A stretch of DNA of 37,775 nt, taken from the sequence record NC_047809.1. The stretch is one strand, 5' to 3'. The stretch's first letter is position 1, and each line of letters begins with the position of its first letter. The DNA is from Escherichia phage vB_EcoP_K. This document shows positions 1,010 through 32,298 of this stretch, in pieces. Made by a program: the position numbers and the translations under genes. The notes beneath the pieces were generated by a model. That model searched no databases and was not told the origin of the DNA. It was given only the letters and a program-made list of their open reading frames with translations.

Positions 1010-3408
1010 TGGAAGTACAAGGTTCATTAGGGAGGCAAATCCAAGGGATTAGCCAGCAACCACCAGCGGTACGTCTTGATGGCCAATGTACGACTATGGT
1101 GAACATGGTCCCTGATGTAGTGAATGGGACTCAATCCCGCATGGGTACAACTCACATTGCTAAGCTCTTGGATGAAGGTACAGATAATATGGCAACGCAC
1201 CATTATCGCAGGGGTGAGGGGGATGAAGAGTATTTCTTCACCTTAAAGAAGGGGCAAGTGCCAGAGATATTTGATAAGCATGGACGCAAGTGCAATGTCA
1301 CCTCTCAAGATGCACCTATGACCTACCTTTCTGAAGTTGTTAACCCTAGGGAAGATGTGCAATTCATGACTATAGCTGATGTTACTTTTATGCTTAACCG
1401 TAGGAAAGTGGTTAAAGTTAGTAATAGGAAGTCACCTAAAGTTGGAGATAAAGCCATTGTGTTTTGTGCATATGGTCAATACGGTACATCTTATTCTATC
1501 ATAATTAATGGAACTACAGCTGCTAGTTTTAAAACACCAGATGGGGGAAGTGCAGAACATGTTGAACAAATACGAACGGAACGTATCACTTCTGAATTGT
1601 ACTCCAAGTTGCAGCAATGGAGTGGTGTGAATGACTATGAAATACAAAGAGATGGTACGAGCATATTTATAAAGAGACGCGATGGTAAAAGTTTCACAGT
1701 AACAACTACCGATGGTGCAAAAGGTAAGGACTTAGTGGCTATCAAGAATAAAGTTAGCTCTACTGACCTACTCCCTTCTCGTGCGCCTGCTGGTTATAAA
1801 GTACAAGTGTGGCCTGCTGGCAGCAAACCTGAGTCTCGTTACTGGCTGCAAGCTGAGCCTAAAGAGGGAAACCTTGTGTCTTGGAAAGAAACAATAGCTG
1901 CTGATGTATTACTTGGGTTTGATAAAGGCACAATGCCTTACATTATTGAACGTACAGGTATCATCGACGGCATAGTTCAATTCAAGATAAGACAAGGTGA
2001 TTGGGAAGATCGTAAAGTAGGGGATGACTTGACTAACCCTATGCCCTCTTTTATTGATGAGGAAGTACCCCAGACAATAGGTGGAATGTTCATGGTGCAG
2101 AACCGCCTATGCTTTACAGCAGGTGAAGCGGTTATTGCTTCTCGTACATCATACTTCTTCGATTTCTTTCGTTATACGGTTATCTCTGCATTGGCAACTG
2201 ACCCATTTGATATTTTCTCAGATGCTAGTGAGGTCTACCAGCTAAAACATGCAGTGACCTTAGATGGCGCTACCGTGTTGTTCTCTGATAAGTCACAATT
2301 TATACTGCCAGGCGATAAGCCTTTAGAGAAGTCAAATGCATTGCTTAAGCCTGTTACAACATTTGAAGTGAACAATAAAGTGAAGCCAGTAGTAACGGGT
2401 GAATCAGTAATGTTTGCCACTAATGATGGTTCTTACTCTGGTGTACGAGAGTTCTATACAGACTCTTATAGTGACACTAAGAAGGCACAAGCAATCACAA
2501 GTCATGTGAATAAACTCATCGAAGGTAACATTACCAACATGGCAGCAAGCACCCATGTTAACAGGTTACTTGTCACTACCGATAAGTATCGTAACATAAT
2601 CTACTGCTACGATTGGTTATGGCAAGGAACAGACCGTGTACAATCAGCATGGCATGTATGGAAGTGGCCTATAGGTACAAAGGTGCGAGGTATGTTTTAT
2701 TCTGGTGAATTACTTTACCTGCTCCTTGAGCGAGGAGATGGCGTATATCTGGAGAAGATGGACATGGGTGATGCACTAACCTACGGTTTGAATGACCGCA
2801 TCAGAATGGATAGGCAAGCAGAGTTAGTCTTCAAGCATTTTAAAGCAGAAGATGAATGGGTGTCTGAACAGCTTCCTTGGACTCCTACTAACCCAGAGCT
2901 TTTGGATTGCATCTTAATAGACGGATGGGATTCATATATTGGTGGTTCTTTCCTATTCAAATACAACCCCGGTGATAACACCTTGTCTACAACCTTTGAT
3001 ATGCATGATAGCCACGTAAAAGCGAAGGTTATTGTTGGTCAGATTTACCCTCAAGAGTTTGAACCAACACCTGTAGTTATCAGAGATAGGCAAGACCGTG
3101 TATCCTATATTGATGTACCTGTTGTGGGGTTGGTTCACCTTAATCTTGATATGTATCCTGATTTCTCCGTGGAGGTTAAGAATGTGAAGAGTGGTAAAGT
3201 ACGCAGGGTGCTAGCGTCAAACCGCATAGGTGGCGCTCTCAACAATACAGTAGGTTATGTTGAACCGAGAGAGGGTGTCTTCAGATTCCCACTGAGAGCT
3301 AAGAGCACTGATGTTGTTTATCGTATTATTGTAGAGTCACCTCACACATTCCAGCTTCGTGATATTGAGTGGGAAGGAAGCTACAATCCAACCAAAAGGA
3401 GGGTCTAA
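1009..3408 (+). CDS. Tail tubular protein B (T7 gp12-like), 799 aa
   Basis: Start ATG overlaps gp11 stop (TAATG) with GGGAGGA upstream; N-terminus MEVQGSLGRQIQGISQQP resembles T7 gp12 N-terminus (..GGISQQP..); size and synteny. Confidence 0.85.
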   Translation: MEVQGSLGRQIQGISQQPPAVRLDGQCTTMVNMVPDVVNGTQSRMGTTHIAKLLDEGTDNMATHHYRRGEGDEEYFFTLKKGQVPEIFDKHGRKCNVTSQDAPMTYLSEVVNPREDVQFMTIADVTFMLNRRKVVKVSNRKSPKVGDKAIVFCAYGQYGTSYSIIINGTTAASFKTPDGGSAEHVEQIRTERITSELYSKLQQWSGVNDYEIQRDGTSIFIKRRDGKSFTVTTTDGAKGKDLVAIKNKVSSTDLLPSRAPAGYKVQVWPAGSKPESRYWLQAEPKEGNLVSWKETIAADVLLGFDKGTMPYIIERTGIIDGIVQFKIRQGDWEDRKVGDDLTNPMPSFIDEEVPQTIGGMFMVQNRLCFTAGEAVIASRTSYFFDFFRYTVISALATDPFDIFSDASEVYQLKHAVTLDGATVLFSDKSQFILPGDKPLEKSNALLKPVTTFEVNNKVKPVVTGESVMFATNDGSYSGVREFYTDSYSDTKKAQAITSHVNKLIEGNITNMAASTHVNRLLVTTDKYRNIIYCYDWLWQGTDRVQSAWHVWKWPIGTKVRGMFYSGELLYLLLERGDGVYLEKMDMGDALTYGLNDRIRMDRQAELVFKHFKAEDEWVSEQLPWTPTNPELLDCILIDGWDSYIGGSFLFKYNPGDNTLSTTFDMHDSHVKAKVIVGQIYPQEFEPTPVVIRDRQDRVSYIDVPVVGLVHLNLDMYPDFSVEVKNVKSGKVRRVLASNRIGGALNNTVGYVEPREGVFRFPLRAKSTDVVYRIIVESPHTFQLRDIEWEGSYNPTKRRV

Positions 3409-7145: not shown

Positions 7146-10100
7146 ATGGAACAAGATATTAAGACTAATTGGGCTGGATATGTCCAGTCTACTCCTGAGC
7201 CGTTTTCTATTGAGGCGGCTCCGGTATCGGCTCCTACGATACGCCAGCGTAATGAGTTACAAGAGCAAGTTCTTGAAGCCAAAGCTGATGCGGACATCTT
7301 AGGTGCTGTAGGTGCTGCCTTCCAGAATGAATGGTTGGCATTTGGAGGTAAGCGATGGTATGACCGTGCCACTGCTGATTTCACACCTCAACCTGACTTT
7401 GAAATCCAACCGGAGCAACGTGAAGCTCTTCGCTTCAAATACGGCACGGATATGATGCAGACAATCATTGAGGGTGTTCGTTCTGAGGATGAATTGAACT
7501 TCCGTATTCAGAATGCTGATGAAGACCTTGAGCGTAATAAACGTATTGCGCAGGCTGGCTGGGTTGGCTCTGTGGCAACGATTGGTGCTGCTGTGCTCGA
7601 CCCTGTTGGCTGGGTTGCCTCTATTCCAACCGGTGGTGCAGCTAAAGTTGGGCTTGTAGGCCGTGCTGTGCGTGGTGCTATCGCCGCTGGCGTGAGTAAT
7701 GCCGCTATTGAATCCGTATTGGTCCAAGGTGACATGACTCGTGATTTAGATGACATTATGGTGGCACTAGGCTCGGGCATGGCGATGGGTGGCGTTATCG
7801 GCGCTGTAGCGCGTGGTAGGGCCACTAAGCTCAGTGAGCAAGGGGATGACAGAGCGGCAAGCATTGTGCGCAGTGCAGACGCAGGGGACCGCTATGTGCG
7901 TGCTGTTGCTGATGACAGTATCGGTGCGATGCGTGTTAAGGGTGAAGAGGTACTCACTGAGGGTGCATTCGATATCTCTAGCAAAGGTGAAGATTTGCTG
8001 AAAACCCTACAGCGGGAAGGTAATGCAATTGATATGACACCTCGCCGCTGGGCCGGAACTATGTCTGCCCTTGGTACTGTCGTGCACTCCTCTCAGGATG
8101 CAAGTGTACGTGGTCTTGGTGCTCGCCTGTTTGAGTCCCCGCAAGGCTTAGGTGCACAGAAGGCATCGGCTAGTCTCATGCAGAATACTAACTTGAATCG
8201 TCTGAAATCTGCTGATATGAACCGTTTCAATGATGGGTTCGATTTATGGCTCAAAGAGAATAATATCAATCCGGTTGCAGGTCATACTAACTCTCACTAT
8301 GTGCAGCAATATAATGAGAAGGTATGGGAAGCTGTACGCATCGGTATGGATGAGTCTACGCCTAAGTCTATCCGTATGGCAGCAGAGGGGCAGCAAGCTA
8401 TGTATCGAGAAGCCTTAGCTTTACGGAAGAGCTCTGGTGAAGCTGGGTTTGAAAAGGTTAAAGCAGATGATAAGTACATGCCTGATATTTTTGACAGTAT
8501 GAAGGCTCGTCGTCAATTTAGTATGCACGATAAGGAGGACATCATTGAGCTATTCTCTCGTGCATACCAGAATGGTTCTCGTAAGGTTCCAAAGGAAGTG
8601 GCTGATGAGATTGCACGTGCACAAGTAAACCGTGTTGTGGATGCCACTCTGACAGGACGTATGAGTTTCGAAAAGGCTATGTCTGGTCAGACTAAAGCAG
8701 AGTATGAAGCAATAATGCGCAAGGCAGGCTTCAGTGATGAAGAAATTGAAAAGATGGTAGAAGCTCTTGATAATAAAGAAACCAGAGATAATATCTCTAA
8801 CCGAGCTAAGATGAGTTTAGGCTTAGATGTTACTCAAGAGTACAATGGCATTCGTATGCGTGACTTTATGAATACTAACGTGGAAGAGTTGACAGATAAC
8901 TACATGAAGGAAGCGGCAGGTGGTGCTGCCTTGGCTCGTCAAGGTTTCTCTACCTATCAGGCTGCACTTAATGCAATTGACCTTGTAGAGCGAAATGCAC
9001 GAAATGCAGCTAAAGATACAAAAGCACACGCACAATTTGAAGCGGAGTCTGCTAAGATTCGTCAATCAGAGCCTGATTACAAGAAGGCACAAGAGAAGAT
9101 TGAAGAGTTAAAGAAGCGACTTAAATTGAAAGAGAAAGATGAAGCAGCGGGTCTGGCTATTGATGAAGAAATCCGTCAGATGCGAGAAGGGCTTCGCTTA
9201 ATTATGGGTAAATCTATCGATGCAGACCCACAGGCTTTATCTACTAAAATGCTGCGTCGTGGTCGTGATATTACAGGTGTACTTCGCTTAGGTCAGATGG
9301 GCTTCGCACAGCTAGGTGAACTTGCTAACTTCATGGGTGAGTTTGGTATTGCTGCAACCACTATAGCTTTAGGTAAGCAATTCCGCTTTACATCTAAGGC
9401 TTTGCGGAGCGGTGATGGCTTCTTCCGAGATAAGAACTTGGCAGAAGTAGAGAGGATGGTAGGTTACATTGGTGAGGATAACTGGCTAACAACCAAGGGT
9501 GCACGTCCAGATGAGTTTGGTGATGTAACCACAGTAAGAGGGATGATGGCTCACTTTGACCAATCCATGAACTCAATACGTCGTGCTCAAACCAACCTAT
9601 CACTCTTCCGCATGGCACAGGGTTCTCTGGAGCGAATGACCAATAGGCAAATAGCTTTGTCTTTCATTGACCACCTTGAAGGCAAGAAGATTATTCCTCA
9701 GAAGAAACTGGAGGAACTTGGTCTTACTCAGGAGTTCATGACTAACCTACAGAAGCACTATGATGCTAACTCTAAAGGTTCTGGCTTGCTTGGCTTTGAT
9801 ACAATGCCTTATGCCATGGGTGAAACTTTAGCTAATGCTATTCGTCGTAAGTCAGGTCTAATTATCCAACGTAACTTCATTGGTGATGAAGGTATCTGGA
9901 TGAACAAAGCACTAGGTAAGACATTTGCACAGCTTAAGTCATTCTCTCTTGTATCTGGTGAGAAGCAATTTGGTCGAGGGATTCGCCACGATAAAATTGG
10001 TCTTGCTAAGAAGACAGCTTACGGGTTTGCTTTGGGTTCAATAGTGTATGCGGCAAAAGCCTATGTGAACTCTATTGGGCGAGAAGACCAAGATGAATAT

Positions 10101-11620: not shown

Positions 11621-11903
11621 ACATGCAGCTACGGAAGACGAGGTTGGCATTCTACATGGTGCTATTACCAAAATCTTTAATAAGAAAGCACAGGCAATAC
11701 TGGACACTATAGAAGAAGACCCAGATGCAGCACTGCATTTAGTCTCTGGTAAAGACATTGGAGCTATGTGTAAGTGGGTTCTTGATAATGGTATTACCGC
11801 TACACCCGCTGCACAGCAGGAGGAGTCCAAGCTATCTAAGCGCCTCAAGGCTATCCGAGAGGCATCAAGTGGCAAGATCATCCAATTCACTAAGGAGGAT
11901 TGA
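11604..11903 (+). CDS. Terminase small subunit (T7 gp18-like), 99 aa
   Basis: GGAGGAG RBS before ATG 11604; small acidic helical protein immediately upstream of and overlapping the large terminase gene. Confidence 0.6.
   Translation: MSVHNKHAATEDEVGILHGAITKIFNKKAQAILDTIEEDPDAALHLVSGKDIGAMCKWVLDNGITATPAAQQEESKLSKRLKAIREASSGKIIQFTKED
11695..11717 (+). promoter_or_regulatory. SP6-class phage RNAP promoter (inside the terminase small subunit gene)
   Basis: CAATACTGGACACTATAGAAGAA; core identical to other copies; predicted +1 G at 11712. Confidence 0.6.
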
Positions 11904-13801
11904 TGGCTAAGGCAAGAGAATCACAAGCGGAGGCTCTTGCCAGATGGGAGATGCTACAGGAGTTACAGCAGACTTTTCCGTATACGGCGGAAGGTTTGCT
12001 TCTCTTTGCAGATACAGTTATCCATAACTTGATTGCAGGCAACCCTCATCTGATTCGTATGCAGGCCGATATTTTAAAGTTTCTATTCTATGGACATAAA
12101 TATCGCCTCATCGAAGCGCCCCGTGGTATCGCTAAAACTACACTATCAGCAATCTATACTGTTTTCCGTATCATCCATGAACCCCATAAGCGTATCATGG
12201 TAGTATCCCAAAACGCCAAGCGAGCAGAGGAAATCGCAGGTTGGGTAGTTAAAATCTTCCGTGGCCTAGACTTTCTTGAGTTTATGCTACCGGACATCTA
12301 CGCAGGGGACCGTGCCTCAGTTAAGGCATTTGAGATTCATTACACCCTACGTGGCAGTGACAAGTCGCCTTCTGTGTCTTGTTACTCAATCGAAGCAGGT
12401 ATGCAGGGTGCGCGTGCAGATATCATCCTAGCAGATGACGTTGAGTCAATGCAGAATGCTCGTACAGCGGCAGGACGTGCCTTGCTTGAGGAACTGACCA
12501 AGGAGTTTGAATCTATTAACCAGTTTGGTGATATTATCTACCTTGGTACTCCTCAGAACGTAAACTCTATCTACAATAACCTACCTACTCGTGGTTACTC
12601 TGTTCGTATCTGGACTGCACGTTATCCCTCAGTGGAGCAGGAGCAATGCTATGGTGACTCCCTTGCACCTATGATTGTGCAGGATATGAAGGACAACCCA
12701 GCACTTCGCTCAGGGTATGGCTTGGATGGCAATAGTGGTGCACCTTGTGCACCTGAAATGTATGATGATGATGTGCTGATCGAGAAGGAAATCTCGCAGG
12801 GTGCGGCTAAGTTCCAGCTTCAGTTTATGCTTAACACTCGCATGATGGATGCTGACCGCTATCCACTACGCCTGAACAACCTCATCTTCACTTCATTCGG
12901 TACAGAGGAAGTCCCTGTGGTGCCTACATGGAGCAACGACTCTATTAACATCATTGGCGATGCACCGAAGTATGGCAATAAGCCTACAGACTTTATGTAT
13001 CGCCCTGTGGCCCGACCTTATGAGTGGGGTGCTGTTACCCGAAAGATTATGTATATTGACCCCGCAGGTGGCGGTAAGAACGGGGATGAAACGGGTGTGG
13101 CTATCGTCTTCCTGCACGGCACATTCATTTATGTGTATCAGTGCTTTGGTGTTCCGGGAGGATACCGCGAATCGTCCCTGAATCGCATTGTGCAGGCCGC
13201 AAAGCAGGCAGGTGTTAAAGAGGTATTCATTGAAAAGAACTTTGGTCATGGCGCGTTTGAGGCCGTTATAAAGCCATACTTTGAACGAGAGTGGCCTGTG
13301 ACTCTGGAGGAAGATTACGCCACCGGACAGAAAGAGTTGCGTATCATTGAAACACTAGAGCCACTAATGGCGGCCCACAGGCTCATCTTCAACGCAGAGA
13401 TGGTCAAGTCTGATTTTGAGTCGGTACAGCACTATCCGCTTGAACTACGCATGTCATACAGCCTTTTCAATCAAATGTCGAACATCACGATTGAGAAGAA
13501 CAGCCTACGACACGATGACCGCTTAGACGCTCTGTATGGCGCTATACGGCAATTAACTTCTCAGATAGACTATGACGAGGTTACACGGATTAATCGCCTC
13601 AGAGCGCAGGAGATGCGCGATTACATCCATGCTATGAACACACCTCACCTCCGTAGGGCAATGCTCTATGGAGATTATGGCACTGAGCGAAGAGTAACCA
13701 ACACTTCCGTGGCTATGCAGCAAAGAGTATACGGTCAGAATTACAGGAGTAAATCGGCAAGCAGAAATACACTTTCTGCAAGGATTTCAAGGACTTATTA
13801 A
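11903..13801 (+). CDS. Terminase large subunit (T7 gp19-like), 632 aa
   Basis: Start overlaps upstream stop (TGATG); ATPase region ..RLIEAPRGIAKTT.. and ..IILADDVES..; C-terminal nuclease-like region; size and synteny. Confidence 0.9.
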   Translation: MAKARESQAEALARWEMLQELQQTFPYTAEGLLLFADTVIHNLIAGNPHLIRMQADILKFLFYGHKYRLIEAPRGIAKTTLSAIYTVFRIIHEPHKRIMVVSQNAKRAEEIAGWVVKIFRGLDFLEFMLPDIYAGDRASVKAFEIHYTLRGSDKSPSVSCYSIEAGMQGARADIILADDVESMQNARTAAGRALLEELTKEFESINQFGDIIYLGTPQNVNSIYNNLPTRGYSVRIWTARYPSVEQEQCYGDSLAPMIVQDMKDNPALRSGYGLDGNSGAPCAPEMYDDDVLIEKEISQGAAKFQLQFMLNTRMMDADRYPLRLNNLIFTSFGTEEVPVVPTWSNDSINIIGDAPKYGNKPTDFMYRPVARPYEWGAVTRKIMYIDPAGGGKNGDETGVAIVFLHGTFIYVYQCFGVPGGYRESSLNRIVQAAKQAGVKEVFIEKNFGHGAFEAVIKPYFEREWPVTLEEDYATGQKELRIIETLEPLMAAHRLIFNAEMVKSDFESVQHYPLELRMSYSLFNQMSNITIEKNSLRHDDRLDALYGAIRQLTSQIDYDEVTRINRLRAQEMRDYIHAMNTPHLRRAMLYGDYGTERRVTNTSVAMQQRVYGQNYRSKSASRNTLSARISRTY

Positions 13802-18769: not shown

Positions 18770-18829
18770 TCAAATGAGGTAACATGAAAGACCTACTGTT
18801 AGCCCTCTTATGCACAGCATGTATCTATG

Positions 18830-18887
18830 GCCCACACCCTCATGCCCTGTCAAACGCTCAGGAATGGCCCTAAAACGGCCTGTGTAA
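18830..18887. repeat. 58-bp direct repeat, copy 1
   Basis: GCCCACACCCTCATGCCCTGTCAAACGCTCAGGAATGGCCCTAAAACGGCCTGTGTAA; identical copy at 19266-19323. Confidence 0.9.
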
Positions 18888-19025
18888 CAATAGATACAGA
18901 GCTAGGATAGGCTAGATTGGCTAGGTTTAGGGTGTTCCTCCTACTGCATCTTATCACTATTACCTACTCTCAGCGGTCTACCGACCGCGACCTAATTGCA
19001 TCTTATAGCTTTAGCTATGCAATCA

Positions 19026-19160
19026 CTAAGGTCTGGCACTAAGACTAACTAAGGTACACTACTAAGTTGATACTAAGCTAAGCACTAAGGCTTTAACTAA
19101 GGCAACCCACTAAGGCTAACCTAAGCCATCCATCAAGGAATAACCTAAGGTACACGTGAG
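19026..19160. repeat. Array of about 11 degenerate heptamers (A/C)CTAAG(G), genome-terminus-like
   Basis: CACTAAGG, AACTAAGG, TACTAAG.. recur at short irregular spacing; analogous to the CCTAAAG-type repeats of T7 genome ends; four more copies at 19325-19420. Confidence 0.7.
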
Positions 19161-19183
19161 CGAGTGAACGGAGCGCAAGCGGA

Positions 19184-19239
19184 GTGAGGAGCAGTGAGTG
19201 AGGAGCAGTGAGTGAGGAGCAGTGAGTGAGGAGCAGTGA
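19184..19239. repeat. Tandem repeat, 4 x 14 bp (GTGAGGAGCAGTGA) plus partial copies
   Basis: Exact tandem copies visible in GGAGTGAGGAGCAGTGAGTGAGGAGCAGTGAGTGAGGAGCAGTGAGTGAGGAGCAGTGAGTGAAGCG. Confidence 0.9.
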
Positions 19240-19265
19240 GTGAAGCGTAGCGAAACGAACAGATA

Positions 19266-19323
19266 GCCCACACCCTCATGCCCTGTCAAACGCTCAGGAA
19301 TGGCCCTAAAACGGCCTGTGTAA
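19266..19323. repeat. 58-bp direct repeat, copy 2
   Basis: Identical to 18830-18887; copies are 436 bp apart and bracket the heptamer and tandem-repeat region. Confidence 0.9.
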
Positions 19324-19583
19324 GCCCTAAGCGGTTGCACTAAGGCAATCACCTTGTCCAATACTAAGGCGCGCCCTAGCGCTTCCTAGGTGTTCTCCTT
19401 GTGCAGCCACTAAGAGCAGACCTCGGCAAGCCCTAGGCCACCCGTCGAGCTTCCTGCGGCAGCAGGTTGAAGACGGACCAGCCCAGCCCAATTCCCAAGC
19501 CAACCGCAGCGCGTTTAAATAGTCACGGGCAAGAGTGCTACATAGTGCAACGTAAAGTATTAGGCTCAATATGGGTCACGTGT

Positions 19584-19706
19584 ATGATGCCTATTGGCTA
19601 TACTGATACAGAGGCTATCTTCTGCACCGAAAGGGATGCAAAGAAGTTTATCTCTAAGCGTAGAAAAGCTGACTCTTACCAACCCAGAACTATTAAGGTG
19701 AACTAA
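19584..19706 (+). CDS. Short ORF reading into the primase start (open from 19467; start ambiguous), possible 5'-truncated gene remnant
   Basis: Frame open for 79 codons ending TAATG overlap with primase ATG; first in-frame ATG pair at 19584 lacks a clear RBS. Confidence 0.25.
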   Translation: MMPIGYTDTEAIFCTERDAKKFISKRRKADSYQPRTIKVN

Positions 19707-22683: not shown

Positions 22684-22882
22684 ACACAGTCTTAAGATGT
22701 TTGATGGTCACGAAGACCTGCAAGCACAAATTACTAACCAAGCCTTCCTGTTTGCACAGTTAACTATGGCTGAAGCAAAGAAGAATAGCCTGACGCGCGA
22801 GCAAGTTATCAAAGAGGCAACTTGGGAGCCACACCAAGGCAAATACATGGGCCAGAAATTAACTGTAACACGCAGTCGATAA
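22673..22882 (+). CDS. Hypothetical small protein, 69 aa
   Basis: ORF overlapping the previous stop; followed directly by palindromic stem-loop copy 3. Confidence 0.35.
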   Translation: MQNKHSLKMFDGHEDLQAQITNQAFLFAQLTMAEAKKNSLTREQVIKEATWEPHQGKYMGQKLTVTRSR

Positions 22883-28817: not shown

Positions 28818-29758
28818 TAGATGCCGATATGTTGCCTTACATCGTCGCGTATACAATCAGCGACATGACTTATGTACGAGCCACAACTCGTGTTAAGTCA
28901 GGACAAGTCCCATCAATCAAAGATACGCCTGAGTGTAAGCAAGCGTGTGACCGTGTGAACTCCTTGCTTAACTCTTGGGTGTATGCAGCAGAATGTGATG
29001 CAGCTAAGTTATTCATGACGAAATCAGAAGCTAACTTCCGTGTCCGCCTAGCATTCACCAAGCCTTATAAAGGTCAACGTAAGACCGAGAAGCCTCCATT
29101 CTTCTATGAATTGCGAGAGCATCTCTTAGAGGTTCACGGTGCAATCTTGGCAGATGGAGAGGAAGCAGACGACCTCATGAGTATCGCACAATGGGACAGC
29201 CACCGCCGCTTCCAGCAAGATACAGGTAACGAGTTCCCTATCGGTAGTCCAGAGCATAAAGCATTCTCTGATACTTGCATCGTTTCCTTGGATAAGGATT
29301 TGATGATTGTTCCCGGTTGGCATCTACAGCCGGGTCAAGAGAAGAAGTGGGTAGAGCCTATGGGCTGGCTTGAGCTACGCCGTAAGGCTAATGGGCAAGT
29401 CAAAGATCTAAAAGGTGCTGGCCTCATGTTCCACTATGCACAGATGATTATCGGTGATGATATTGATAACTATGCTGGCATACCAGGTCGTGGTGCTAAA
29501 TATGCCTATGATCTTCTCAAAGATTGTAAGACAGAGAAAGAGTTGTACATGGCAGTGCTGGGTGCTTACAAGGCTAAGTTCGGGCATGGACAAGTTAAGA
29601 TTAAGAATTACCGAGGTGGTTATCGTATCGGCAAAGCCTTTGACCTGATGCTTGAATGTGGTCGCCTAGCTCACATGGCTAGATTCAAAGGTGATATATG
29701 GCGAGCCGATAAGAACCCAATCTTGTGGGGAGATGATGCGGAATGGTTAGCAAATTAA
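28721..29758 (+). CDS. 5'-3' exonuclease (T7 gp6-like), 345 aa
   Basis: ..NRIALIDADMLPY.. and ..GDDIDNYAGIPGRGAKYAYDLL.. correspond in pattern to T7 gp6 (..GILVMDGDWLVF.., ..KGDITDGYSGIAGWG..). Confidence 0.8.
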   Translation: MAYMRPNFDFGATVSEDNNLILWPTEGNRIALIDADMLPYIVAYTISDMTYVRATTRVKSGQVPSIKDTPECKQACDRVNSLLNSWVYAAECDAAKLFMTKSEANFRVRLAFTKPYKGQRKTEKPPFFYELREHLLEVHGAILADGEEADDLMSIAQWDSHRRFQQDTGNEFPIGSPEHKAFSDTCIVSLDKDLMIVPGWHLQPGQEKKWVEPMGWLELRRKANGQVKDLKGAGLMFHYAQMIIGDDIDNYAGIPGRGAKYAYDLLKDCKTEKELYMAVLGAYKAKFGHGQVKIKNYRGGYRIGKAFDLMLECGRLAHMARFKGDIWRADKNPILWGDDAEWLAN

Positions 29759-30144
29759 AAGCATCGGAGGTGGCAGCTTATAAGAAGGAATTGCTGGATA
29801 AGCAAGGCTGGAAATGCCCTCTGTGTGGCGGCAGTCTCAAAGCTGTCACACCTGTAAACCGTGTACTTGACCATGACCATGAGACAGGATTCTGCCGCGC
29901 TGTTGTATGCCGAGGCTGCAATGGTGCGGAAGGGAAGATTAAGGGTGTTATCTCTGGTTATGGCAAGGCAGGTAATAACCGTTACTTCCAGCTTCAATGG
30001 TTAGAACGACTGTATGAATACTGGAAGTTACATAGTACGCCTCAGACAGATAAGTTATATCACAAACATCAAACGGAGGCAGAGAAGCGCGAGGCTAAGA
30101 ACCGTAAGGCACGCCTTGCTTATGCAAGAAAGAAAGGAGTATGA
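29743..30144 (+). CDS. Endonuclease VII-family Holliday-junction resolvase, 133 aa
   Basis: CPLCGG...DHDHETGFCRAVVCRGCN zinc-binding and H-N-H-like core typical of T4 endo VII family; position after exonuclease. Confidence 0.6.
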   Translation: MVSKLKASEVAAYKKELLDKQGWKCPLCGGSLKAVTPVNRVLDHDHETGFCRAVVCRGCNGAEGKIKGVISGYGKAGNNRYFQLQWLERLYEYWKLHSTPQTDKLYHKHQTEAEKREAKNRKARLAYARKKGV

Positions 30145-30145
30145 T

Positions 30146-30577
30146 ATGGACTGTATAGACCACGGGCATTATAAATGCTTAAATCAATTAGGTTACTACA
30201 GGTCGTGGCATAAACCTAGTAAGAGGTTACAATTACTTCATCGCGTGGTCTATGCAGAGCACCACGGCCTTTCTATAGAGGATATAAAGGATGTAGCGAT
30301 TAGACACACTTGTGATAATGCAAGGTGTATAAACCCTGCACACTTAATATCTGGTACACAGCAGGACAACATACAAGATATGATAGATCGAGGCAGACGT
30401 GCTAGCTTTGCAGGAGAAAATAATAATCGTGCTAAACTAACTTGGGATGTTGTACGTGCTATCAGGGCAACATATGTTGCTAATAAGAAAGGTGAGAGGT
30501 TACGACTAGCTAAGCTATATAATGTCTCACCTGCTACCATTAGTGATATTGTAAGCGGGAGGGTTTGGAAAGAATAA
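30146..30577 (+). CDS. HNH homing endonuclease (free-standing), 143 aa
   Basis: AAAGGAG RBS; ..LHRVVYAEHHGLSIEDIKDVAIRHTCDNARCINPAHL.. (HNH_3-type His-Me finger) plus C-terminal DNA-binding-like region ..NNRAKLTWDVVRAIRATY.. Confidence 0.8.
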   Translation: MDCIDHGHYKCLNQLGYYRSWHKPSKRLQLLHRVVYAEHHGLSIEDIKDVAIRHTCDNARCINPAHLISGTQQDNIQDMIDRGRRASFAGENNNRAKLTWDVVRAIRATYVANKKGERLRLAKLYNVSPATISDIVSGRVWKE

Positions 30578-31584
30578 TGGGTAAGATTAGAAACTTGTTT
30601 ACTAATAAGGAGGTAGAAGAAGCAGTTGAAAGTGCAAAGCAGGATGATGGCACTATCAACTATCGCCTGATGGCGTCTATTCTCTCAGATAACACACACG
30701 GGACTACAGTTACAAGGCAGCTTGCAAAGTATTGGGCCAAACAATTTGAAAAGCGGAAGAAGAATGGCGAGGCGTATGAAACCTTGGCTATTGCGAACCG
30801 TGCTATCAAAGAAGAACGTAAGCTCAGGACTCCTGACCGCTACGAGGATTTGGCTATTGTACCATTGCCTGACTCGCCTCATCGAAGTGTACTGGTAATA
30901 CCTGACACCCATGCACCTTATGAGCATCCAGATACATTAGAGTTTCTGGCAGCGGTGGCAGCACGTTACCGTCCAGACACTGTAGTTCATCTTGGTGATG
31001 AGGCGGACAAGCACGCACTTTCATTCCATACGTCAGATCCTAATCTGGATTCGGCTGGTATGGAGTTAGAGAAGGCTCGTATCTTCATGCGTAAATTACA
31101 TAAGATGTTCCCTGTAATGCGCATCTGCCACTCTAATCATGGCTCCTTACATTTCCGTAAGGCCAGTGCTCATGGCATCCCTGTGCAATACCTGCGCACA
31201 TACCGTGAAGTCTTCTTCCCGCAGGGAGGTGGCGACCAGTGGGACTGGCAGCATACGCATGTACTTGAGCTACCTAATGGTGAGCAGGTGGCGTTCAAGC
31301 ATCAACCTGCTGGCGCTGTCCTAGCAGATGCAGCACATGAGCGCATGAACTTAGTGTGTGGTCACTTGCATGGGAAGATGTCGGTGGAGTATGCACGTAA
31401 CACCCATGAACAGTATTGGGCTGTGCAGGGAGGCTGTTTGATTGATGAGTCATCTCGTGCATTTGCCTATGGTCGTGAGTCCAAATACAAGCCAGCATTA
31501 GGTTGTGTGGTTATTCTGGAGGGTGTGCCGCACATTGTCCCGATGCAGACCAATAATGACAATCGCTGGATTGGTAAGATTTAG
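30577..31584 (+). CDS. Calcineurin-like metallophosphoesterase, 335 aa
   Basis: Ordered motifs PDTHAP (DxH), HLGDEAD (GDxxD), SNHGS (GNH[DE]-like), GHLHG (GHxH); start could also be TTG 30565. Confidence 0.7.
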   Translation: MGKIRNLFTNKEVEEAVESAKQDDGTINYRLMASILSDNTHGTTVTRQLAKYWAKQFEKRKKNGEAYETLAIANRAIKEERKLRTPDRYEDLAIVPLPDSPHRSVLVIPDTHAPYEHPDTLEFLAAVAARYRPDTVVHLGDEADKHALSFHTSDPNLDSAGMELEKARIFMRKLHKMFPVMRICHSNHGSLHFRKASAHGIPVQYLRTYREVFFPQGGGDQWDWQHTHVLELPNGEQVAFKHQPAGAVLADAAHERMNLVCGHLHGKMSVEYARNTHEQYWAVQGGCLIDESSRAFAYGRESKYKPALGCVVILEGVPHIVPMQTNNDNRWIGKI

Positions 31585-31601: not shown

Positions 31602-31652
31602 AGGGTAGGTATTAGCTTGCCCTTGATTGTATAGTGAATGGAGGAATTAATT

Positions 31653-32123
31653 ATGTCAAAGATTTATATTGGCGAATACGTCGTACGCCGTGCAGCTTAC
31701 CGAGATGCCTTCTGGAATAAACTGTGTGAAAGCCTAGACAAGAAACCAGATGGGGTATTCAAAGTATCCCGTGCAGAACCTAATTATAACTCTATCATGT
31801 TAGAAGGTGTTGAGAAGCGCGAATGGTATGCACCTTACTTCAAGGTTGTTGACTCATTGCAAGGTGAAGATCCTAGCACGTTGGACAACAATATGGTTAC
31901 TAAGCCTAAGCACTACGAGTTCTTCGATGGGGTAGAGGCAATCACTATCATTGCTCGTAGTATGACCGAGAAGCAATTTGCTGGATATTGCATGGGTAAT
32001 GCTTTGAAGTATCGTCTGCGTGCAGGGAAGAAATTCAACACGGAAGAAGATCTGAAGAAAGCAGACTACTACAAAGAGCTATTCCAGAAGCATCGTCACG
32101 AATGTATTGATGAGGATATTTAA
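31653..32123 (+). CDS. DUF3310-like phage protein, 156 aa
   Basis: GGAGG 6 nt upstream; ..KPKHYEFFDGVEAI..GNALKYRLRAGKK..EDLKKADYY.. matches my recollection of the DUF3310 signature common in T7-like phages. Confidence 0.45.
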   Translation: MSKIYIGEYVVRRAAYRDAFWNKLCESLDKKPDGVFKVSRAEPNYNSIMLEGVEKREWYAPYFKVVDSLQGEDPSTLDNNMVTKPKHYEFFDGVEAITIIARSMTEKQFAGYCMGNALKYRLRAGKKFNTEEDLKKADYYKELFQKHRHECIDEDI

Positions 32124-32124
32124 T

Positions 32125-32298
32125 ATGGAAGGTAAACTATATAGAGGGTACTTCGGTAACTTATATAGAGTAAGCCCTCTTGGTTTTGTATTGACCTCCA
32201 ATGATGAAGGTGCAATGTGGTTCCTAAGTGCCTATGGTTCTGACTTAGCATACTTTAAAGAGGCAATATTTAAAGGTGTGATGAAGGAGGTGAAATGA
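32125..32298 (+). CDS. Hypothetical small protein, 57 aa
   Basis: ATG 2 nt after previous stop, GAGGA upstream; overlaps ligase start by 4 nt. Confidence 0.4.
   Translation: MEGKLYRGYFGNLYRVSPLGFVLTSNDEGAMWFLSAYGSDLAYFKEAIFKGVMKEVK

Follow-up and report, generated by a model that had tools for sequence, protein, structure and literature searches.

Between the endonuclease VII and metallophosphoesterase (PE) genes of Escherichia phage vB_EcoP_K (phage K) lies a small gene for an HNH protein, and its presence there raises the question of whether it is a mobile homing endonuclease gene and, if so, how much DNA moves with it and how long it has occupied this site. Phage K, a Vectrevirus (K1E/SP6 group; Autographiviridae, Molineuxvirinae), comes from the Smith and Huggins set of therapeutic phages specific for K1 (PMC5582158), and the sequence analysed here, referred to as the window, is the whole stretch of 37,775 nucleotides in record NC_047809.1. 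Homing endonuclease genes of these phages have been mentioned in passing (PMC5582158), and the literature searched contained no description of the cassette structure, linked PE allele or decay series at the endonuclease VII-PE locus. The reading preferred here, which we regard as quite probable, is that the open reading frame (ORF) encodes a free-standing HNH homing endonuclease (His-Me finger, HNH_3) that spreads by intronless homing together with a co-converted, presumably cleavage-resistant 5' segment of PE. The features on which the argument draws are as follows.

29743-30144, plus strand: endonuclease VII gene, the left flank (Pfam Endonuclease_7, 1.6e-12).
30133-30139, plus strand: Shine-Dalgarno sequence AAAGGAG used by the HNH gene, identified by sequence and homologous to that preceding the PE start in HNH-less genomes.
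30146-30577, plus strand: HNH endonuclease gene (143 aa; ATG at 30146, TAA at 30575-30577), with an N-terminal His-Me/HNH_3 core and a C-terminal helix-turn-helix (HTH)-like domain.
30140-30803, plus strand: heterologous cassette of the HNH gene and PE codons 1-76, 664 bp in place of about 234 bp in HNH-less relatives (blastn break-points).
30577-31584, plus strand: metallophosphoesterase (PE) gene, the right flank and presumed target (335 aa; calcineurin-like; Pfam Metallophos; PHROG 221, 6.8e-105).
30577-30804, plus strand: HNH-linked allele of PE codons 1-76 (PEn*), with about 50% amino acid identity to the HNH-less allele (tblastn).
30805-31206, plus strand: extended linked haplotype inside PE, 98.6-100% identical to the HNH-bearing phages G9 and PDP21P6 (segment-wise and sliding identity).

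The HNH gene sits within a DNA-metabolism operon and is packed closely against both neighbours. The endonuclease VII TGA occupies 30142-30144 and the HNH ATG starts 1 nt later, 6 nt past the end of the GGAG, and at the other end the HNH stop overlaps the PE start codon (ATG at 30577) in the sequence TAATG; in K44 the corresponding stop/start overlap is 8 nt. A longer in-frame ORF from 30014 also appears in the ORF list, and the start at 30146 is supported because all homologues begin M-x-CIDHG. LL11, K1E, 6948 and SP6 have nothing between the two flanking genes, which overlap by 8 nt, and the endonuclease VII of these HNH-less phages ends in ARKKEVKVG*, compared with a shortened ARKKGV* in the window. 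Comparison of the junction with PDP21P6, K44, LL11 and K1E found that HNH-less genomes read ...AAGAAGGAGGTTAAAG TTG GGT AAG..., a Shine-Dalgarno sequence and then the PE start, while the window reads ...AAGAAAGGAGTATGAT ATG GAC TGT..., and therefore the HNH gene was placed between the Shine-Dalgarno sequence and the start codon of PE. As read from these junctions, the HNH gene took over the ribosome-binding site of PE, and PE translation is now predicted to be coupled to the HNH stop. The original prediction, made from the letters of the window, of a complete HNH gene lying tightly between two conserved genes is thus confirmed by the 143-aa frame, the 1-nt gap and TAATG overlap, and a Pfam HNH_3 match above cut-off; its further statement that the gene has its own ribosome-binding site holds in that AAAGGAG at 30133-30139 precedes the ATG, but this element is the homolog of the PE signal in HNH-less relatives.

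The encoded protein is identical to AQN31927.1 and YP_009789154.1 (annotated as 'HNH endonuclease' and 'endonuclease', phage vB_EcoP_K). Near-identical entries exist for phages B, C, D, R and G9, the orthologues being 97-99% identical and at the same locus. The phage K protein differs from that of phages C, D and R by a single residue change, V51A, which is private to the window copy and lies beside the conserved IRHTCDN block. No HNH paralogue was found within the window.

Assignment to the HNH class comes from profile searches, involving matches to Pfam HNH_3 (PF13392; 31.7 bits vs a cut-off of 24.8, E 1.2e-7, aa 30-75) and to the 'HNH endonuclease' families PHROG 6254 (6.5e-26) and PHROG 59 (3.2e-24); a search of NCBIfam gave no family for the protein. 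The nuclease core spans about aa 30-80 and contains a Cys/His zinc-loop signature, with a sub-threshold match (24 bits vs a cut-off of 27) to PF05551, the I-PpoI-type zinc-loop family; it is followed by an HTH-like domain at about aa 85-138, matching phrog_517 ('HTH DNA binding protein') over aa 85-138. In an alignment of homologues down to 34% identity, H32, R33, H54, C56, D57, C61, N63, H66 and N75 are invariant, and the window copy keeps all 24 invariant columns. The catalytic His, metal-binding Asn and structural Cys/His residues are present, the role of each being putative. AF2, given a shallow alignment of 7 sequences, produced a mediocre model (mean pLDDT 72.6) that contains strands at 51-54 and 67-70 and a helix at 72-81, with block pLDDT values of 76-86 across core aa 31-70 against the whole-model mean of 72.6, and a C-terminal three-helix bundle at 100-137 (pLDDT 83-89). 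Foldseek of this model (pLDDT 72.6) against the PDB gave nothing at E ≤ 0.001; the matches, all at E ≥ 0.25, included short local ones to I-PpoI in the zinc-loop region (E about 2) and homeodomain-like ones at the C-terminus. A PDB sequence search at E ≤ 1 likewise gave no relative, its sole match being a spurious encapsulin. Because the model is mediocre and no Foldseek match is significant, fold membership rests on sequence, and a beta-beta-alpha-metal fold is consistent with the data but not proven.

The wider family of HNH_3 + HTH proteins is very large, and clusters formed at 50% identity number 110,492 at E ≤ 1e-3, 20,745 at E ≤ 1e-10 and 6 at E ≤ 1e-30; the phage K protein looks like a member of an HNH lineage specialized for the PE 5' end inside this family. 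Many of the best-scoring relatives (P0037-P0045 and others) are proteins of 300-680 aa with 2-7 tandem matches to the 143-aa HNH protein, and could represent either HNH+HTH units joined end to end or gene calls that were fused.

The distribution of the gene is sporadic. When 3 kb spanning the locus was used as query, 93 phage records matched, and the HNH cassette is present in 8 of them (≥80% query coverage), which represent 6 Vectrevirus isolates: G9, PDP21P6 and phages B, C, D and R, with duplicate deposits for two of the last four. The remaining matching records align as two pieces with the HNH region missing. Phage K shares 99.8% identity over the locus with phages B, C, D and R, and SP6, K1E, LL11 and 6948 lack the HNH gene in flanks that are otherwise 90-98% identical. 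Outside Vectrevirus, an HNH gene with 89% identity occupies this locus in the Klebsiella phages K44PH129C1 and Koku. Drulisvirus phages (e.g. Minorna and KpV71) have a 56% identical HNH gene directly upstream of PE and overlapping its start; there too it is sporadic (17 of 258 records at ≥80% query coverage), and comparison with the HNH-less ZH5 places the insertion likewise between the Shine-Dalgarno sequence and the PE start. A 60% identical relative lies between endonuclease VII and PE in a phiKMV-like 43.7-kb contig. An ENA scaffold of 69,814 bp (L074) also carries an HNH-bearing Vectrevirus-like locus, and, with genomes of this group at about 44 kb, is possibly a concatemeric or chimeric assembly. 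The variable presence anticipated by the original prediction is therefore borne out, with SP6, K1E, LL11, 6948 and most of the 93 records lacking the gene and 8 records having it, and close relatives do not all share an identical HNH gene at this position.

The inserted unit is larger than the 432-bp ORF, which had been taken to be the insertion; the ORF stands, but the unit actually replaced is the 664 bp of 30140-30803. In sensitive blastn searches, homology to LL11, K1E, 6948 and SP6 ends at 30139 and restarts at 30804-30806, and the boundaries in the Klebsiella lineage are essentially identical (K44 2486-3159 vs L028 2258-2501). On the PE side, the cassette therefore includes the first 76 codons, which begin MGKIRNLFTNKEVEEAVESAK... 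in the window and LGKLRSLYKDSEVLDAIEQAT... in LL11, K1E and 6948, being about 50% identical, while the PE proteins are the same from codon 77 on (KEERKLRTPDRYEDL...). In tblastn searches, PEn* was found at ≥97% identity only in HNH-bearing Vectrevirus records, at 85% in the HNH-bearing K44PH129C1 and Koku, and at ≤63% elsewhere. The association was mapped by tblastn across about 60 loci from GenBank, IMG/VR and metagenomes, and every locus with an HNH gene between endonuclease VII and PE carries PEn* (the window, C, B, G9, PDP21P6, K44, Koku, L013, L014, L033, L065, L068-70, L072 and L074-79), whereas all of the approximately 28 HNH-less loci carry the LL11-type allele (61-99% identical to LL11 and 45-53% to the window). 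Additional metagenomic loci agree with this association. The HNH-less alleles of the segment (PEn) are conserved at 83-99% across Vectrevirus, Zindervirus and Klebsiella phages. No PEn* with a clean HNH deletion was present among the searched loci, which contained frameshifted remnants only. The suggestion that the gene marks recombination thus gains a concrete form, in that no locus with the HNH gene was without a foreign allele of PE codons 1-76. Cassette GC content (41.6% vs 45.1% for the window) falls at the 14th percentile of equal-sized windows, and was rejected as an uninformative sign of recent foreign origin.

Linkage extends further into PE in a looser form. PE nt 1-228 are always HNH-linked, and nt 229-630 are so in some phages (G9 and PDP21P6); within the latter segment, nt 421-630 of the window are just 78-82% identical to HNH-less Vectrevirus, with L018 at 88.6%. 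The remainder of PE does not segregate with HNH, nor do the endonuclease VII alleles on the other side, G9 and L013 having the LL11/window allele and PDP21P6 the K1E allele. The haplotype at 30805-31206 looks like a variable-length co-conversion tract, and one-sided tracts of this kind would result from repair that begins at a PE-side break and has to run back across the HNH gene.

In the mechanism that we propose, the enzyme would nick or cut the HNH-less allele in or beside the 5' part of PE during mixed infection, and recombinational repair from the HNH-bearing genome would then copy the HNH gene and PE codons 1-76, sometimes up to about 630 nt of PE, the outcome being intronless homing with marker exclusion. 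With its strong divergence (about 50% amino acid identity), the PE allele that travels with HNH would presumably escape cutting. Crossovers that are resolvable only at the edges of heterology would explain the identical boundaries across phage lineages. It is from the pattern of sequences that we infer that the enzyme is active, that it has a target site, that the linked allele resists it and that homing takes place. A search for the recognition site through synonymous-site conservation of HNH-less PE alleles gave no clear peak in codons 1-76, its maximum falling outside the heterology at codons 85-108 (about 30829-30900 in the window), where synonymous-codon identity among nine divergent alleles peaks at 0.71-0.80 vs a background of 0.40-0.66. 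This peak, to the right of the cassette boundary, could represent recent gene-conversion homogenization or a constraint at the nucleotide level.

Other kinds of mobile DNA were considered and rejected. The HNH gene is intergenic, with the endonuclease VII and PE ORFs intact on either side, and an Rfam search over the whole window found no family, group I and II introns included; an intron-encoded endonuclease of the group I type is rejected on these grounds, and the gene is free-standing, intergenic and intron-less, as originally described. A transposon is likewise rejected, there being no terminal repeats or target-site duplications around the cassette; the only direct or inverted repeats are short chance ones, none of them flanking 30140 or 30803. 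A scan for sigma-70 promoters and terminators gave chance-level matches, with no sign of an autonomous transcription unit.

The suggestion that the insertion is recent does not survive comparison of the alleles. Synonymous divergence (dS) among HNH alleles at the locus is 0.12-2.1 within Vectrevirus and 1.1 relative to the Klebsiella-phage copies, several lineages are frameshifted, and GC content is unremarkable. Intact HNH copies are under purifying selection, with dN/dS relative to the window of 0.10 for G9, 0.06 for L013, 0.07 for K44 and L033 and 0.11 for PDP21P6 (0.06-0.11 overall). At least five independent frameshifted copies occur, and all of them retain PEn*. The HNH gene of phage B has a 2-bp TA deletion that truncates the protein at aa 124; that of L068 has a 1-bp deletion at nt 186 (the truncated protein occurs on 9 contigs), to which L069 adds a second deletion; L070 has a 1-bp insertion at nt 320; and L077-79, from three samples, have +1 at nt 145 and -1 at nt 322. 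Homing endonuclease genes classically go through such a life cycle, in which intact copies are kept by purifying selection and decay recurs. Judged from these sequences, the HNH element is old and polymorphic rather than one recent arrival. The divergence of the cassette between E. coli and Klebsiella phages (dS 1.1) is similar to that of the backbones, and recent horizontal movement between the two lineages is therefore not demonstrated.

The surroundings of the cassette are themselves variable. In several relatives (L023, L027/L052, L032/L053, L040, L054, L068 and L069), a second, distant HNH_3 gene (38-43% identical) lies between the exonuclease and endonuclease VII genes, at about position 29743 of the window. 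In genomes with this upstream HNH gene, endonuclease VII is strongly diverged (56-69%, vs 88% in relatives that share the backbone but have no HNH gene); in K1E and PDP21P6 the endonuclease VII allele is diverged (about 70%) with no HNH gene upstream. On the 3' side of PE, the region 31612-32290, where a DUF3310 'nucleotide kinase' gene and a small ORF precede the ligase gene, is strongly mosaic among close relatives, with kinase products of 112-191 aa at 56 to 100% identity to the window and breaks in blastn homology at 31611, 31880 and 32127-32291. Within PE itself, aa 1-76 have no Pfam match, and the motif (V/I)TRQLA(K/R)YW, present in both alleles and as YRQMVKYW in Drulisvirus, suggests a small domain, possibly helix-turn-helix, ahead of the metallophosphatase core.

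Further away, the terminase large-subunit gene (11903-13801) is uninterrupted in the window (junction at about 13069-13073), while that of phage C is split by a homing endonuclease gene of about 750 bp (8899-9647 of the phage C record), a presence/absence polymorphism in the same phage group. The K1E terminase is likewise split, according to the phD2B genome announcement (PMC4246154). Some features of the window concern the record itself. Its ends (positions 1 and 37775) close on each other, with the major capsid gene split across them and positions 22733 and 22735 of the phage C record adjoining. Of the early region of phage C (44,970 bp), about 6.5 kb with the T7-type RNA polymerase (RNAP) gene and ocr is missing from the window, and a piece of about 560 bp (18888-19513, in the region 18785-19705) is inverted relative to its neighbours. 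The missing early region fits the paper by Baig et al., in which RNAP, 1.1 protein, Ocr and a homing endonuclease are listed with the genes of phage R that are 'divergent' from phage K (PMC5582158). The phage K record is probably an incomplete or misjoined assembly, and not a viable RNAP-less phage.

The same evidence can be read in other ways. The gene might be a domesticated accessory nuclease, retained for its benefit to the phage and not homing, with roles, for example, in DNA processing alongside endonuclease VII, exonuclease or PE, or in degradation of host or competitor DNA, and with linkage to the PE allele reflecting functional co-adaptation. Strong purifying selection, the same pre-PE position with translational coupling in three phage groups, and the location inside a DNA-metabolism operon would all fit such a role, but most close relatives manage without the gene, at least five independent frameshifts persist in full-length genomes, including isolate B, and the family belongs to the enormous and typically selfish HNH_3+HTH class (110,492 clusters at E ≤ 1e-3), so that this reading is judged unlikely. 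Baig et al. place isolate B with the best-performing therapeutic phages (PMC5582158). It is less probable still that the window copy is an inactive relic, i.e. an intact ORF for a recently dead homing endonuclease that is heading for decay. Its frame is full-length, all 24 invariant columns are kept, the Shine-Dalgarno sequence and coupling are intact and one residue differs from the phage C/D/R protein, against which stand the repeated decay among relatives and the private V51A change beside the conserved IRHTCDN block.

Little credence at all is given to the idea that HNH is a passenger of module shuffling, adjoining by chance one variant of a naturally hypervariable PE N-terminal domain. 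The neighbourhood is indeed mosaic, with divergent alleles of endonuclease VII and the nucleotide kinase that have no adjacent HNH gene, but the HNH/PEn* association is complete in two backbones, HNH-less PEn is well conserved (83-99%) across Vectrevirus, Zindervirus and Klebsiella phages, and the second, unrelated HNH site between exonuclease and endonuclease VII repeats the pattern of an HNH gene with a divergent allele downstream. A more speculative proposal, to which we attach low probability, is that HNH and the 76-residue PE N-domain are two co-adapted parts of one module, and not a selfish gene accompanied by hitch-hiking DNA; with its conserved TRQLA(K/R)YW helix, this N-domain looks like a small DNA-binding domain. 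If true, HNH would have stayed at the PE Shine-Dalgarno/start site across at least three Autographiviridae groups (Molineuxvirinae, Drulisvirus and the phiKMV-like contig) through cooperation or mutual control between HNH and the PE N-domain, e.g. by recruitment of PE to HNH-made nicks or by an immunity-like interaction, and the cassette would serve in phage-against-phage competition, carrying an immunity determinant at the protein level.

Homing with co-conversion, the preferred reading, has well-studied counterparts. Free-standing T4-type endonucleases show a one-sided co-inherited flank extending from the cleavage site in a neighbouring gene (PMC2988022, PMC2790892). The phage K gene resembles the T4-type SegF, SegG and SegB (GIY-YIG) and MobE (HNH) in being intergenic and sporadic and in having co-inherited DNA on one side only, starting from a presumed PE cleavage site. 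It differs from these Seg/MobE enzymes in its setting (Autographiviridae), in having no detectable sequence relationship to the Seg proteins, and in that its linked flank is a deeply diverged allele (50% amino acid identity) and not a set of scattered polymorphisms; moreover, activity, site and biased inheritance were shown by experiment for the T4-type enzymes, whereas the phage K case is comparative only. The order of an HNH core followed by a C-terminal HTH is shared with the I-HmuI-like HNH endonucleases (Bacillus phage SPO1/SP82 introns; Skunavirus), from which the phage K gene differs in being free-standing rather than intron-encoded and in having a Cys/His zinc-loop signature in the core. 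Homology to I-HmuI was not detected, with no PDB chain match at E ≤ 1 and no I-HmuI among the 50 best Foldseek matches listed. In phage genomes, HNH endonucleases group according to where they are inserted, and those of Skunavirus include members that have been shown to cause marker exclusion (PMC12724721).

The HNH annotation and the scheme of intronless homing with marker exclusion were thus already known, and it is by comparison that we infer the mechanism at this locus. The present comparison adds how far the unit reaches (30140-30803, and more loosely linked DNA to about 31206), its constant pairing with a foreign allele of the PE 5' end, the takeover of the PE ribosome-binding site by the HNH gene, the several decayed copies, and an HNH-PE association that is conserved across phage subfamilies. 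The mobile element is of an ordinary kind with an unusually clear footprint, and does not represent a new type of system. In coliphages specific for K1 and used in therapy, the locus is a natural case that shows cleanly how a homing endonuclease shapes local mosaicism, with one allele of a conserved DNA-metabolism gene dragged through different backbones, fixed break-points, and a visible series of invasion and decay. The 143-aa protein is a candidate small site-specific nuclease whose target would be easy to map. The cassette accounts for one divergence block among the Smith-Huggins phages, and points to a place at which non-reciprocal DNA exchange would occur between Vectrevirus phages that co-infect from a cocktail.
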